A DNA stretch of 64,000 bases from Vairimorpha necatrix (Eukaryota). Shown piece by piece: positions 554-58,678 of this stretch. Numbering within the stretch: the stretch's first letter is position 1; each line of letters begins with the position of its first letter. Both the position numbers and the translations under genes were made by a program. The DNA is taken from assembly GCA_036630325.1 (NCBI GenBank), contig CP142734.1, positions 62,001 to 126,000 of the forward strand, written 5' to 3'. The notes below the pieces were generated by a model. It searched no databases. It saw nothing but the letters and a program-made list of their open reading frames with translations, and was not told the DNA's origin.

Positions 554-622
554 TGTAGATATTTATTTTTAAAATTTGTAAACGCCTGATTTTTATGAAC
601 GACAACAATAAATCTATTGACA
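554..622 (+). repeat. 5' LTR (69 bp)
   Basis: Direct repeat of 5040-5108, followed by the PBS. Confidence 0.9.
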
Positions 623-715
623 TGGTGGAGAATGGGACATCAAAGCCCATAAACATGGTTATAACATAAAGAAAACAACTTAAAGAATGTAAGAGATTGG
701 GAATGATGTCTTTCA

Positions 716-1483
716 GCTGCCCTTAGCCCAGTGGTAGAAGGCAATGCTTCCATTGAGCAACGGCTGGGTTCGATTCCCAGGGGCACCAAAATTGTTTCTA
801 CTTTCTATGTTTCAGTTGGAACAACTCAGATGATGAAAATGTATACGATAATCATTAAGTTTATTCAATAAACCTTGTGTGTGTCCAGCCACAAGGGGAT
901 TAGCATCTAGTGTAGAAACGCACCTCAAGGCCAAAAACAGTATCACCCTTGTGGTGACGTAATGATACATAAAAGTATCTAATGGGTACGGCCTAGTTGG
1001 AGCCCATGGCTGGTGACTCTAGAGTAGGATTCTAGAGCTAACTAAGAGACTAGACGAAGTAGGGCAATAGAAGGTCTCGTGGACCCTATCCCACAAGATT
1101 CTGTAACACGGTGGCCGAAACTAGTGCGAAACTTGTGATCAACGCAGCCCAATAAAAACGCCGAGCTGGTGATATGGTCGTGTAAGGAGCCGTGTGTGCA
1201 ATACAGATGATTGTAGGGACCTTTGAGTCAGTACGATGATGTCTCTCCTCAGGCTATATATAACCATGCCCGTTAAGTATATCCGCTGTGAGGTCACTCT
1301 GGACGCGATTTGAGGTATAAATTGAAAGTGTTCGCCTGGAGCAAAGTATAATGGATACGGCGGAGCTTGCTGCACTGAGAAGTTGTATAAGAGTTTTAGT
1401 GAGTAAGAATCTCACAGTACCAATTGGATGAGTATCACACCCAATTCCCTCTGGTCCCTATGTATAGTTATTCCTACCTCTTA
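716..1483 (+). mobile_element. tRNA-headed SINE-like / Pol III structured-RNA insertion within gag
   Basis: tRNA-like head 718-788; GC-richer body with many stems; candidate TSD CTTTCA (710-715, 1484-1489); gag-like coding resumes after it. Confidence 0.65.
718..788 (+). ncRNA. tRNA-like sequence (pseudo-tRNA / SINE head)
   Basis: A-box TAGCCCAGTGG; T-arm CTGGG-TTCGATT-CCCAG (B-box); only a 5-bp acceptor TGCCC/GGGCA; encoded CCA; aberrant anticodon arm. Confidence 0.7.
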
Positions 1484-55604: not shown

Positions 55605-58600
55605 TGTAGGGTTTAGAACCCTTAATAAATAAATGGTTAACATGGCGAACACAAGGATGAACAGGGAAACAAGAGAGTCCCGTAGTCAAGAGGCTAGAAC
55701 ATTAGAGAAAGAGGCAATTAGGATAGATAAGAGACTAAAGTTAATATTGAAAGTTGAGAAAGTTGAGTGGAAAGATGTTATGGATTTGGCATCTGCGAAC
55801 TTGCAGGATTATATTTTTGAAAATTTTTGTGACGGAAGGAGCAGTTGGGAGGAAATTTATAAAGGCTTACAAAAAGGAGCAGAATTTGAGAGAGAGTCAG
55901 AAGAAAGACAAGAAATGATTAAAGAGATTATGGATAAAGTGTTGAAAGAGTTTAGGGAAGAAAGAAAAGAAAATCTTAGGATGTATAGGAAAAGAAGAGA
56001 AATCAGAGAAACTACAAAATGTTTTATATGTAAGAAAGAAGGGCATTACGCTAGAGAATGTCATGAAAGTGTAGCTGGTAGGGAAAAATATAAAATTAAA
56101 AAGGAACAAGTTTTACAGAAAGAACCAATTATCAACAATGAAGGGAAAAGATGTAAAACAGTAAATAAGTTAGAAAATTTAATTGAAAAGTATCCGGAAG
56201 TTTTTAAAGAATCAGAAGAAAAGATAAAATATCTCACAGGAGAGAAGTGTCCAATAAATACTAAGCAAGGTGAAAAGGTTGTGAAAAGAGGGCAGAATGT
56301 GCCATACTACCTTAGGGTGAAATTTGAGGAGTACTTGAATAAGTTGGAAAATAGAGGGGTTATAAGACGTTCCAAAAGTGAGTGGAGGAGTCCAATAAGA
56401 GCACTTGAAAAACCAAATGGGGACGTAAGATTGGTAAGCAATTTGATGGCGTTAAACGATTTGGTTGACAAGGACCCGTACTCACTACCGTTAATTAAGG
56501 ATATTATGAGAGCCACACAGGGGTCAAAAGTATTTACGGTTATCGACTTAAAAGAAGGGTTTTATCATATTGAGATTGAGGAGCACCATAAGCACAAAAC
56601 AGCATTTGAAGTGAATGGTCGAGTATACGAATGGAATAGTATGGTTATGGGGTTTAAGAATTCGCCTCATATAATGCAGAGAGTAATGAACAGAGTTTTA
56701 GATGAATTCAGAGGTAAAGGCGTGGAAGTATATATGGATGATATAGTTATTCATGGTAAAGACGTAAGAGTGCATGACGAGTTACTAGAGAGGGTAATTA
56801 AAAAGTTTAAAGAGTGTGGGTTGAGAATAAACCAAACAAAGATACAATACAAAAAAGATGAGGTGATGTTGCTGGGAGTAACAATTAATGGGGAGGTAAT
56901 GGGACCGAATGAGATTAAAAAGCAGGAGACATTGAAATATAGAAAACCTGAGAATGTTAGAGAGTTAAGAAGATTTTTAGGACTAACTGGTTGGTTTAGA
57001 GACTTTATTCCCAACTATGCGTATAGAACAGTAAGGCTTACTGAGGCTTTAAAGAAAGATGTTAAGTGGAATTGGACGGAGGATATGGAAAGAGCCTTTG
57101 AGGATATGAAGCAAGGCTTGAGAGATATGAAAAAGTTGAAGATTCCGGACGGAAAAAAGCTATTTAGAGTAAGAACTGATGCGTGTGATACGGGGATCGG
57201 AGCAATTCTATTACAAGAAAATAAAGAGGGTGAGTGGATTCCGATACAATGGGCATCGAAAATGTTGACTCCTACCGAGCGAAGATATACGATAAGTGAG
57301 AAGGAGATGTTGGCGGTGTTTTTTGGAATAAAGAAGTTTGAAAGTGATTTAAGAGGAAGGAAATTTCATTTGATGACGGATCATAAAGCATTAACAGAGA
57401 TCAGAAATAAGCCATACTTCAATAATAACAGAATAAACAGATGGGTAGAACAGATACAAGAGTTTGACTTTACAATAGAGTATGTGAAAGGGGAGTTGAT
57501 GACAGATGCAGATGCGTTAAGCAGGCAGTATGATCAGGTAGAAGTTTCGGATGAACAAAAAGAAAAGGACAACAAGAGAAAAGAAGTGATCGAAAAACAA
57601 ATTTTGGGAAAAAAGCAGAAACATATTAAAGAAAAGGACGGTAAACAGTATTGGGAATTTTCCACAGGTGAGGTGAAAGAGATATTGAGCCTAGATAGTA
57701 GAGAACATGAAATAACAAGAGTACATGAGGAGTTAAACCATAGAGGTGTCAAAGGCACTTATTATAACATTAAACAAAGATGGTATTGGCCTGGTATGAA
57801 AGATCATATTAATAAGGTAATTAAGAATTGTGAAATATGTGGGATTAACAATAGGAAAAACACAGGAGGATGTGATTTCGTAGTAACTAGAAAGAAATTG
57901 GAGAAAGTGGCGTTGGATTTAATGGACATAGGTGGAGAGAATAGGTATGTGTTACTGGGTATTGATTACTTTACTAGAAGGTTGTGGGGTTCGAATTTGA
58001 GATGTAAAGAGAGTAGTGAAGTTATAGAGGTATTACAAAAGTGGATAAGGGAAGATGGATTTCCAGAGGAATATGTGACAGACAACGGAAAAGAGTTTGT
58101 AAGTAATAGATTTAAAGAATGGTGTAGTATTAATGATATTAAACATAGGAAAGTGGGCTTAGAAGCTCATAGGAGTAATGGTAGAATCGAGAGATGCATC
58201 AGAACTATAAGAGAGACATTGATAAAGCAAAATGATGGGAATATTTCTGAAAAGATAGAAAGAGCAATCAAAGGATATAATAATACACTACATACAGCAA
58301 TAAAATGTACGCCGATGGAAGCGTGGAGAGATCAAACTGCTGAAGTTATAATTGAAAATGATGAAAATGGAAAATATGCTGGTCGGTTCAAGAGAAGACA
58401 CAGAGAGACATTTACAGTAGGCCAAGAGGTAAGAATCGCTAGGAGAGAAAATTTAGGCACACGTGCGAAGACAGACAAGGGAAGATTCACGGGTCGCGGA
58501 AGGATCGTAGCTATAAGTGAAAATGATTCATATATTGTGAGACTACTGGATGGTAAAATTGTTAAAAAGAGGCATTATGATTTGAAAGAGATAAGGAAGA

Positions 58601-58678
58601 GTTGTTTAGAAGATGGAGAGACTACCCGTCTGGAGGGGGATGTAGGGTTTAGAACCCTTAATAAATAAATGGTTAACA
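55605..58678 (+). mobile_element. Intact Ty3/Gypsy retrotransposon (3074 bp) with identical 38-bp LTRs
   Basis: LTR TGTAGGGTTTAGAACCCTTAATAAATAAATGGTTAACA at 55605-55642 and 58641-58678; TSD TAAAA; PBS-like TGGCGAAC at 55643; PPT GGAGGGGGA at 58632-58640. Confidence 0.97.
55633..58668 (+). CDS. Single Gag(CCHC)-RT-RNaseH-integrase polyprotein, no protease domain
   Basis: CFICKKEGHYAREC, IDLKEGF, YMDD, RTDACD, TDHKAL, HHCC, LDLMD..TDNG..SNGRIER. Confidence 0.96.
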   Translation: MVNMANTRMNRETRESRSQEARTLEKEAIRIDKRLKLILKVEKVEWKDVMDLASANLQDYIFENFCDGRSSWEEIYKGLQKGAEFERESEERQEMIKEIMDKVLKEFREERKENLRMYRKRREIRETTKCFICKKEGHYARECHESVAGREKYKIKKEQVLQKEPIINNEGKRCKTVNKLENLIEKYPEVFKESEEKIKYLTGEKCPINTKQGEKVVKRGQNVPYYLRVKFEEYLNKLENRGVIRRSKSEWRSPIRALEKPNGDVRLVSNLMALNDLVDKDPYSLPLIKDIMRATQGSKVFTVIDLKEGFYHIEIEEHHKHKTAFEVNGRVYEWNSMVMGFKNSPHIMQRVMNRVLDEFRGKGVEVYMDDIVIHGKDVRVHDELLERVIKKFKECGLRINQTKIQYKKDEVMLLGVTINGEVMGPNEIKKQETLKYRKPENVRELRRFLGLTGWFRDFIPNYAYRTVRLTEALKKDVKWNWTEDMERAFEDMKQGLRDMKKLKIPDGKKLFRVRTDACDTGIGAILLQENKEGEWIPIQWASKMLTPTERRYTISEKEMLAVFFGIKKFESDLRGRKFHLMTDHKALTEIRNKPYFNNNRINRWVEQIQEFDFTIEYVKGELMTDADALSRQYDQVEVSDEQKEKDNKRKEVIEKQILGKKQKHIKEKDGKQYWEFSTGEVKEILSLDSREHEITRVHEELNHRGVKGTYYNIKQRWYWPGMKDHINKVIKNCEICGINNRKNTGGCDFVVTRKKLEKVALDLMDIGGENRYVLLGIDYFTRRLWGSNLRCKESSEVIEVLQKWIREDGFPEEYVTDNGKEFVSNRFKEWCSINDIKHRKVGLEAHRSNGRIERCIRTIRETLIKQNDGNISEKIERAIKGYNNTLHTAIKCTPMEAWRDQTAEVIIENDENGKYAGRFKRRHRETFTVGQEVRIARRENLGTRAKTDKGRFTGRGRIVAISENDSYIVRLLDGKIVKKRHYDLKEIRKSCLEDGETTRLEGDVGFRTLNK

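Follow-up and report, generated by a model that had tools for sequence, protein, structure and literature searches.

A stretch of 64,000 nucleotides from the genome of Vairimorpha necatrix (GenBank assembly GCA_036630325.1, contig CP142734.1, positions 62,001 to 126,000 of the forward strand; hereafter the window, in whose own coordinates all positions are given) contains three complete Ty3/gypsy retrotransposons whose long terminal repeats (LTRs) measure only 69, 52 and 38 bp, none of which reaches the size usual for Ty3/gypsy LTRs, about 100 bp to several kb. We refer to these elements as A (554-5108, plus strand), B (39691-43023, minus strand) and C (55605-58678, plus strand). We consider it probable that they represent a microsporidia-specific Ty3/gypsy clade in which the LTR has been reduced roughly to the minimum that still performs every task of an LTR. 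The window is AT-rich (GC content 0.22-0.35) and also encodes ordinary microsporidian genes, including those for a HECT ligase, a cytidine deaminase, a proteasome alpha subunit, a NAD kinase and an exopolyphosphatase.

A tblastn search of the window with its own pol proteins detected four Ty3/gypsy elements, namely A, B, C and a degenerate relative of C. The three repeat pairs (38, 52 and 69 bp) listed in the initial annotation of this DNA were recovered in the same places by a repeat search, by direct reading of the junctions and by a script of our own, which called elements from a direct repeat with a 4-6 bp target site duplication (TSD), a TG start and a purine tract; working through LTR, TSD, primer binding site (PBS) and polypurine tract (PPT), the script returned the same three elements and no others. 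The two LTRs of a pair are 91% identical in A and 100% identical in both B and C. Each element has its own perfect 5-bp TSD, as had been claimed (AAGAC in A, CTGAT in B, TAAAA in C; 3/3). In all three a TGG-initiated tract of 11 nt, the predicted PBS, touches the 5' LTR, and a G-rich PPT abuts the 3' LTR (AAAAAGGGGGA in A, GAGGGGGA in B and GGAGGGGGA in C). The LTRs all begin with TGTNG and finish with ACA, save those of B, which finish with TTA (TG..TA). Apart from one degenerate third copy of the 38-mer at 51901-51938, the LTR sequences are absent from the rest of the window.

The coding content of the elements is that of Ty3/gypsy retrotransposons. Pfam domains in C follow the Ty3 order (RVT_1, RT_RNaseH, Integrase_H2C2, rve); in B the reverse transcriptase (RT) and ribonuclease H (RNase H) lie in a first open reading frame (ORF) and the integrase in a second, and A matches B piecewise. 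A, B and C each have a CCHC zinc knuckle. A Pfam capsid domain was detected in none of the elements, and Rfam at its gathering threshold gave no match in the window. Since the repeats are very short and AT-rich genomes hold many short repeats, the pairs might be chance matches or assembly artefacts and not LTRs, but this is vanishingly improbable: not even partial patterns appeared in 100 shuffled windows (0/100), the repeats are placed exactly at the PBS and PPT of a Ty3 pol with perfect TSDs in three of three cases, and taking out C with one TSD copy joins the two parts of the host gene exactly. That these structures are genuine LTRs of Ty3/gypsy retrotransposons is, in our judgment, as good as certain.

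Element C lies within an exopolyphosphatase (DHH) gene of the host on the plus strand. The front part of this gene (54753-55604) aligns to residues 1-281, and the rear part (58684 to about 59013) to residues 282-389, of P0123, a 391-aa V. necatrix exopolyphosphatase paralogue, and C is situated exactly between the matches to residues 281 and 282. Excision of C together with one copy of the TSD (TAAAA, 55600-55604 and 58679-58683, found by direct reading and by the script) restores the host frame with no residue missing relative to P0123. Because the two halves of the host gene close exactly on removal of the element, the 38-bp repeat is the true end of the integrated unit. At the level of sequence, this shows that the boundaries of C are fixed to the base and that C moved by integration. 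The insertion is probably recent, because the LTRs are identical and the ORF of 1011 aa is intact. Two other exopolyphosphatase (PRUNE/DHH) paralogues, of 391 and 395 aa, are encoded by V. necatrix. The rear half of the split gene shares its frame with the ATG in C's 3' LTR (MVNIKYKFENW.., 58669-59013); this LTR could drive a truncated C-terminal host product, and the match of frames may be a matter of chance (1 in 3).

The 5' LTR of C (55605-55642, plus strand, TG..CA) carries GGG at LTR positions 5-7, CCC at 15-17, AATAAA at 20-25 and again at 24-29, TAA at 26-28 and ATG at 29-31. It is followed by the predicted PBS TGGCGAACACA (55643-55653), which is translated as (M)ANT. The single ORF (55633-58668, 1011 aa) begins at the ATG at position 29 of the 5' LTR and translates the PBS as part of M V N M A N T R. 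It encodes a short gag with a CCHC knuckle (residues 129-143), followed by RT, RNase H and integrase. The PPT (58632-58640) is coding as well (..L E G D, within ..E T T R L E G D), and the frame continues from it into the 3' LTR (58641-58678, 100% identical to the 5' LTR), where it stops at the TAA of LTR positions 26-28. This stop codon directly precedes the ATG that serves as the start in the 5' LTR, and of the 3074-bp element only 28 nt in the 5' LTR and 10 nt in the 3' LTR are non-coding. The RT-RNase H region of C is 86% identical to a protein of Nosema granulosis.

The gag part of C comprises only about 128 aa, and a relaxed Pfam search found no protease in C; the same search gave only sub-threshold RVP-type hits in B and in L003, one of the relatives described below. 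A D[ST]G motif occurs between the CCHC knuckle and RT in 2 of 33 aligned relatives, and in C and its close relatives this interval consists of 56-135 poorly conserved, charged residues (195 in one further row). Judging from these alignments, family C and its close relatives seem to be without an aspartic protease.

Element B is flanked by CTGAT on the minus strand (43028-43024 and 39690-39686, by direct reading and script). Its 5' LTR (42972-43023, 52 bp, TG..TA) has CCCC at LTR positions 29-32 and AATAAA at 41-46, overlapping an ATG at 46, and its predicted PBS (42961-42971), TGGTGGAGAAT, is the same as that of A and lies inside the ORF (MFMVEN). ORF1 (40696-42978, 760 aa), which is 99% identical to a V. 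necatrix protein, starts at the ATG within the 5' LTR and encodes gag with the CCHC knuckle, then a stretch with a weak aspartic protease signal, followed by RT and RNase H. ORF2 (39749-40771, 340 aa) encodes the integrase and ends in a TGA that overlaps the PPT (39743-39750, read directly), next to which lies the 3' LTR (39691-39742, 100% identical to the 5' LTR). A frame change of one base, in an A4G4 run near 40750, interrupts the pol of B, and ORF2 is reached only through it. This frame change, situated between RNase H and integrase, is the sole defect of B and, given the identical LTRs, could be a recent mutation or a homopolymer sequencing error. A programmed frameshift was considered and rejected: the site falls in the linker between RNase H and integrase, L003 is continuous there, and the run is a homopolymer.

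Element A is dead. It is flanked by AAGAC (549-553 and 5109-5113, by direct reading and script) on the plus strand. The 5' LTR (554-622, 69 bp, TG..CA) has its ATG at LTR position 42 and AATAAA at 54, and its CCC is mutated to CGCC. The junction with the predicted PBS (623-633) gives A|TG in frame (MVEN), and this frame stops 11 codons past MVEN. The interior (634-5028) holds a degenerate gag, the CCHC knuckle near 1980-2138, RT at 2528-3232, RNase H and an integrase reaching to about 5027, with stops and frame changes throughout and pol in pieces. The PPT (5029-5039) is abutted by the stop codon of the integrase frame, and the 3' LTR (5040-5108, 69 bp) has an intact ACCCC 8 nt before its ATG. 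It had been claimed that the integrase runs up to or into the PPT, and this is so in each element: the stop abuts it in A and overlaps it in B, and the frame of C reads through. Between the PBS and gag, A has about 840 nt (640-1460) that are relatively GC-rich and have no counterpart in B. Within this segment ARAGORN calls a tRNA-Met-like stretch at 717-787, the only tRNA-like sequence in the window; a real tRNA gene was rejected, the Rfam score being 21.9 bits against a cut-off of 29. The extra segment may be a tRNA-derived insertion.

Comparable LTRs are present in relatives of these elements. A search with the C protein returned 169 relatives at E <= 1e-10, many of them on contigs of 3035-3159 bp with ORFs of 996-1031 aa; because the ORF fills most of such a contig, the LTRs of many relatives must be tiny (tens of bases). 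The DNA of the relatives was that of microsporidia-like contigs binned into bacterial metagenome-assembled genomes (MAGs). L001, whose protein is 66% identical to that of C, has the PPT GGAGGAGGGGA followed by a 38-bp 3' LTR in which GGG (5-7), CCC (15-17), the hexamers (20-25 and 24-29) and ATG (29-31) occupy the same positions as in C before a terminal ..TAACA; the two LTRs share 29 of 38 bases and align with no indels. L002 has LTRs of 67 bp, the PBS TGGCACCCGACG and the start MTHINMAPD, while L003 has LTRs of 58 bp, the PBS of A and B and only an ATG at the junction of LTR and PBS (MVENNG). L147 (75 bp) and L135 (176 bp), which belong to another clade, show the same layout. The PBS types among the elements are TGGTGGAGAA, TGGCGAACAC, TGGCACCCGA and TGGCGACGGC. 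No micro-LTR relatives were found in metagenome contigs, where the best 80 of 555 loci are distant Ty3 elements with a best-segment identity of <= 35%, or in viral contigs, which gave 5 distant loci. Two contigs of circular type, L130 (terminal overlap 114 nt, 191 nt outside the ORF) and L139 (139 and 137 nt), were set aside as sources of an LTR length, the PBS being unplaceable.

Two further sequence features of family C were noted. The first is an inverted repeat, GGGTT/AACCC, at positions 5-17 of the C LTR (55609-55621); in the degenerate copy (51905-51917) it reads GTGTT/AACAC, with both sides changed, and in L001 (2728-2740) it pairs via G-U. The corresponding hairpin is no more stable than in shuffled sequences (z -0.1 to -0.8). 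The second is the sequence GAGACTACCCGTCTGG just before the PPT (58609-58631 in C), which is nearly identical in L001 (2692-2716) and whose peptide ETTRLEGG recurs in distant homologues. It can form a 4-bp hairpin, AGAC/GTCT, which in the degenerate copy (51869-51891) is AGGC/GCCT, both sides being changed and the pairing kept. The pre-PPT sequence may be a cis element, a suggestion drawn from few sequences.

We examined the layout of the LTRs in the seven families for which a 5' LTR was available (A, B, C, L002, L003, L135 and L147). Where the final A of the LTR meets the TG of the PBS, all seven have an ATG in the polyprotein frame; all seven also have an A[AT]TAAA hexamer and, 0-18 nt before the first ATG, CCC (GGG in L135), which in A is confined to the 3' LTR. 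Six of the seven possess one more in-frame ATG, within the LTR itself. When the LTRs were shuffled, an in-frame upstream ATG arose in 5-19% of cases and all three features together in 0.03-4.5% per LTR; CCC turned up in 29% of shuffles of L002, in 51% of those of L135 and in 1-8% of those of the other 6 of the 8 LTRs tested. The shared layout is thus far beyond chance. The layout of CCC, ATG and AATAAA proposed in the initial annotation is therefore real and recurs in relatives, except that the 5' LTR of the 69-bp family has CGCC, leaving an intact CCC in its 3' LTR alone. The peptides that it had read across the junction (MFMVEN in B and MNDNNKSIDMVEN) are correct, as is M V N M A N T for C, and the translated PBS is genuine and recurs in relatives from other organisms. 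Its further point, an ATG inside the LTR, applies to A, B and C but is not constant, the ATG being missing in L003 and several A/B-type homologues. The translated PBS is shared by all seven measured families, and the LTR ATG is common without being obligatory. The open polyprotein frame begins inside the 5' LTR or at its end, crosses the PBS and extends as far as the PPT or enters the 3' LTR.

The same arrangement is seen in the homologues of C. Among the top 50, 46 start with M, of which 26 show PBS-type peptides (MAN, MAP, MAT, MAS, MGA or MVE) and 20 are other or truncated. Because the peptides encoded by the PBS differ, the primer tRNA was probably exchanged several times while the frame through the PBS was kept. 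A PPT-type peptide is read through at the C-terminus in 9 of 50 homologues. Members of the A/B lineage keep the LTR ATG less constantly; A, B, P0141 and P0031 have it.

This arrangement resembles the starts of host genes. Of 9 host ORFs in the window, 6 carry CCC upstream of the first ATG, at a distance of 1-24 nt, and four of the six also have an A/T run. Four annotated host ORFs show an A/T run, CCC(C), 1-9 nt and then ATG, for example the exopolyphosphatase gene, whose start was set by alignment; this is the same arrangement as in the LTRs. According to PMC2803860, microsporidian genes carry a motif resembling CCC right upstream of the start, a 5' untranslated region under 7 nt and AAUAAA. 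Start motifs reported for Nosema are TTTTTTTACCCC in N. ceranae and ACCCTT in N. apis (PMC11592040), and ACCCTT is literally present in the LTRs of C, L002 and L003. For V. necatrix itself, CCC or GGG within 30 bp of the start is reported for 77% of genes of functionally characterised proteins (PMC10759460). The statement in the initial annotation that microsporidian genes use CCC/GGG-like motifs near the ATG thus agrees with published motifs and with the host ORFs of the window.

On these grounds, we propose a model of expression and replication. The middle of the LTR (A/T run and CCC or GGG) would act as a host-type core promoter, with transcription starting a few bases before the first ATG and a unique 3' region (U3) of about 20-45 nt. 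The AATAAA-type hexamer of the same LTR would set the 3' end at or just past the end of the LTR. Translation would start at the first AUG of a near-leaderless RNA, which is the LTR ATG if present and otherwise the junction ATG. The tRNA-primed minus-strand strong-stop DNA would then jump on a short homology in the repeated region (R), and the remaining steps of reverse transcription and integration would be canonical. If transcription starts between CCC and the first ATG, R together with the unique 5' region (U5) is at most 36 nt in A, 31 in L147, 21 in C and in L002, 20 in B and in L001, and 19 in L003, and the LTR ATG sets a minimum of 10 nt in C and of 7 nt in B. As the hexamer finishes 6-26 nt short of the LTR end, the cleavage site would be expected at that end or slightly past it, leaving hardly any U5. 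From these figures we infer that R measures about 10-35 nt, where the initial annotation had supposed perhaps only 10-20 nt. Retroviral vectors can cope with an R of about a dozen nucleotides. An LTR-internal promoter, start codon and poly(A) signal combined with a very short R is well motivated by this geometry and by analogy with host genes, and we lean towards it.

Several observations weigh against this interpretation. Only C is intact, A being dead and B carrying its frame change. What we say of promoter use, start codon and R length is drawn from geometry and analogy. The hexamer of B ends 6 nt before the LTR end, and cleavage would fall in flanking DNA. The LTR of the degenerate copy of C reads CAC where C has CCC. 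None of the four elements on MAG contigs (L002, L003, L135 and L147; 0/4) has a matching TSD, probably owing to chimeric assembly of multicopy elements, and their LTR boundaries were set by the repeat together with PBS and PPT. In the A/B lineage, the LTR ATG is absent from L003, and P0143, P0144, P0145 and P0150 begin at MVE. The public V. necatrix gene model for B starts at a third, downstream ATG (MKTEISS).

The last two of these points bear on an alternative in which the LTR ATG is not the start codon, translation beginning at the junction ATG or one downstream, and the upstream in-frame ATG is tolerated baggage. It is in keeping with this alternative that 6 of 26 C-type homologues begin at a junction-type M and that gene callers, which take the longest ORF, inflate apparent upstream starts. 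Nevertheless, we think it unlikely. An upstream in-frame M without a stop, 1-6 residues ahead, is kept in 20 of the 26 PBS-type homologues against a shuffle expectation of 0.05-0.19, a count to be read with the mutual relatedness of these homologues in mind, since it does not stand for 20 independent events. The residues between the two M differ widely (MEINVH, MINKD, MSINLY, MIQVDH), and CCC or GGG lies 0-18 nt before the first LTR or junction ATG in all seven families, as it does at host genes. We therefore retain the LTR ATG, where there is one, as the candidate start codon.

Very unlikely, in our view, is a micro-LTR with no working promoter or terminator, where the RNA would come from read-through or from neighboring host promoters, the whole 38-69 bp LTR would serve as the strand-transfer repeat, and CCC and AATAAA would be incidental. 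CCC is expected in so few shuffles of most of the LTRs tested, yet CCC or GGG is correctly placed in each of the seven families, and its position is held between C and L001 despite changes at 9 of 38 bases. By the established retroviral mechanism, a strong-stop DNA extended into the upstream flank would end in bases that have no match at the 3' end. Element C does lie in sense orientation inside a host gene, but A and B have no equivalent upstream gene. What speaks for read-through is that transcription overrun and overlapping transcripts are documented in E. cuniculi (PMC2803860), that AATAAA arises by chance with a frequency of 0.15-0.46 per LTR in shuffles, and that CCC is altered in the degenerate copy of C. 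On balance we keep the host-type promoter within the LTR.

In order to determine whether short LTRs arose once or several times, we used a maximum-likelihood tree of the RT-RNase H region (45 rows, 396 columns), in which A was represented only by its unbroken 234-aa RT fragment; such a phylogeny had been named in the initial annotation as the check on single versus repeated origin. One clade with support 100/100 unites 23 of the 45 rows, among them A, B, C, L001, L002, L003 and all six named microsporidian proteins, which include those of N. granulosis, V. necatrix and Enteropsectra. Within it, A and B are sisters (100/98) and C pairs with the N. granulosis protein P0003 (100/97). The three LTR lengths had been taken as three distinct families; the lengths are distinct, but A and B are sister lineages with a common PBS, so that two lineages plus one are involved. 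All six measured LTRs of the microsporidian clade are 38-69 bp long, while in the outgroup the nearest measured LTR, that of L006, is 142 bp long and that of L069 169 bp. Because six of six LTRs in a 100/100 clade are short, a single reduction is favoured.

The opposing account, in which LTRs shrank independently in three or more families under the compact gene-expression rules of the host, was implied by the initial annotation. It can point to LTR sequences of A/B and of C that are unalignable except at their ends, and to the separate clade of L147 and L135, in which the same layout occurs with a wider range of lengths (75 and 176 bp). Set against the position of A, B, C, L001, L002 and L003 in one fully supported clade of uniformly short LTRs, with 142 bp in the nearest measured outgroup, convergence is highly improbable, one ancestral reduction being the simplest account. 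The short LTR is best read, from the tree, as an inherited trait of the clade and not as three convergent events.

Putting these lines together, we tentatively suggest, with somewhat more doubt than confidence, that the 38-bp LTR of C is near minimal. It would consist of two integrase ends of ~10 bp, a CCC core promoter, and an AATAAA that also supplies the stop (TAA), followed by the ATG, in a mobile, protease-less element of 3074 bp that is nearly all coding; R would span ~10-20 nt, and the arrangement would be ancestral in the clade and invisible to standard LTR finders.

The elements are related to several known systems. Closest are the microsporidian Ty3/gypsy elements, namely Nbr of Nosema bombycis and the microsporidia-specific groups of Parisot et al. 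2014 (PMC4202319); in the RT-RNase H tree the window elements share one clade with the named N. granulosis, V. necatrix and Enteropsectra proteins. The groups of PMC4202319, as described there, have a single gag-pol polyprotein instead of two ORFs, as does C. Nearly all Nbr polyproteins are reported to include a protease (PMC2474625), whereas none was found in family C. The main text of PMC4202319 does not give LTR lengths, LTR anatomy or coding through PBS and PPT, and LTR lengths are likewise absent from the main texts of PMC5012567, PMC13174016, PMC3614468, PMC7313128 and PMC10759460. We found no published description of microsporidian LTRs under 100 bp in a search that left Xu et al. 2006, the supplements of PMC4202319 and Repbase outside its range; curated libraries or those supplements may already list such lengths. 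Publications on short LTRs that the search returned deal with plants, insects or endogenous retroviruses (ERVs).

A precedent for the translated PBS exists in a different superfamily, Ty1/copia. In Ty1 of Saccharomyces cerevisiae, translation of GAG begins within the 5' LTR, which is about 330 bp long. Ty1 has a full U3 promoter, separate GAG and POL frames and priming by initiator methionine tRNA. The PBS of Ty1 lies inside the GAG ORF (PMC4974528). In the window elements the LTRs are 38-69 bp, and the ORF of C also runs through the PPT into the 3' LTR. Elements of the Mag lineage often have a single ORF and comparatively short LTRs, like those described here, the LTRs of Bombyx mori mag being 77 bp. 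Mag-like elements of Culex have LTRs of 119-304 bp (PMC3286476, Table 1). Compared with these published Culex LTRs, those of the window are shorter and contain a start codon. In our tree, which has no reference Mag sequence, the sister group of the microsporidian clade includes animal K02A2.6-like proteins. Terminal-repeat retrotransposons in miniature (TRIMs) resemble the window elements in having very short terminal repeats, roughly 100-250 bp, that flank a PBS and a PPT. TRIMs are non-coding and non-autonomous, whereas the window elements encode their own RT, RNase H and integrase.

Common LTR finders have a default minimum LTR length of 100 bp. LTRs of 38-69 bp fall below it, and annotations would list internal Gypsy fragments or ordinary genes in place of complete elements; the V. 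necatrix annotation gives such proteins names like "endonuclease". LTR-based dating and counts of solo LTRs would consequently be missing for microsporidia. The elements also provide a natural lower bound on LTR content, pushing down the known lower limit of what a retroelement needs, and a compact system in which the homology needed for first-strand transfer, the borrowing of a minimal host promoter and life without an own protease could be tested. Since C interrupts an exopolyphosphatase paralogue, its family is, or recently was, reshaping coding sequence.

Traces of further elements are present in the window. The degenerate fourth element, of family C (about 49590-51938, plus strand), ends in the 38-bp LTR copy at 51901-51938, which has 3 mismatches; no 5' LTR was found for it. 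A third copy of the PBS TGGTGGAGAA lies at 48808 and is preceded by ~55 nt that start with TGTTGAG and contain AATAAA. This segment (48753-48818), just upstream of the degenerate C copy, looks like the remnant 5' LTR and PBS of an A/B-type element.

Other features of the window are of minor relevance here. Two neighboring minus-strand ORFs, at 34846-35934 (362 aa) and 37736-38923 (395 aa), neither with a Pfam match, are 74% identical over a 300-nt segment; they give the impression of a gene family, of unknown function, that was duplicated locally. A 21-nt tandem repeat of about 4-5 copies (31925-32029, minus strand) lies inside a 460-aa ORF (31516-32898) that has no Pfam match either. A 711-aa ORF at 61863-63998, again with no Pfam match, adjoins a series of short broken ORFs (59690-61900, minus strand). 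These contain a ..LLFVDDLKLF.. motif with a weak RVT_1 hit (E 0.074) and may be a decayed non-LTR retroelement. Finally, the contigs of the relatives reveal eukaryotic contamination of public MAGs: microsporidia-like retroelement contigs (L001-L003, L024 and L027) are contained in the bacterial and archaeal genomes G001-G005, labelled as Clostridium, Erysipelotrichales, Turicibacter and Methanosphaera, with 43 matches in G001 alone.

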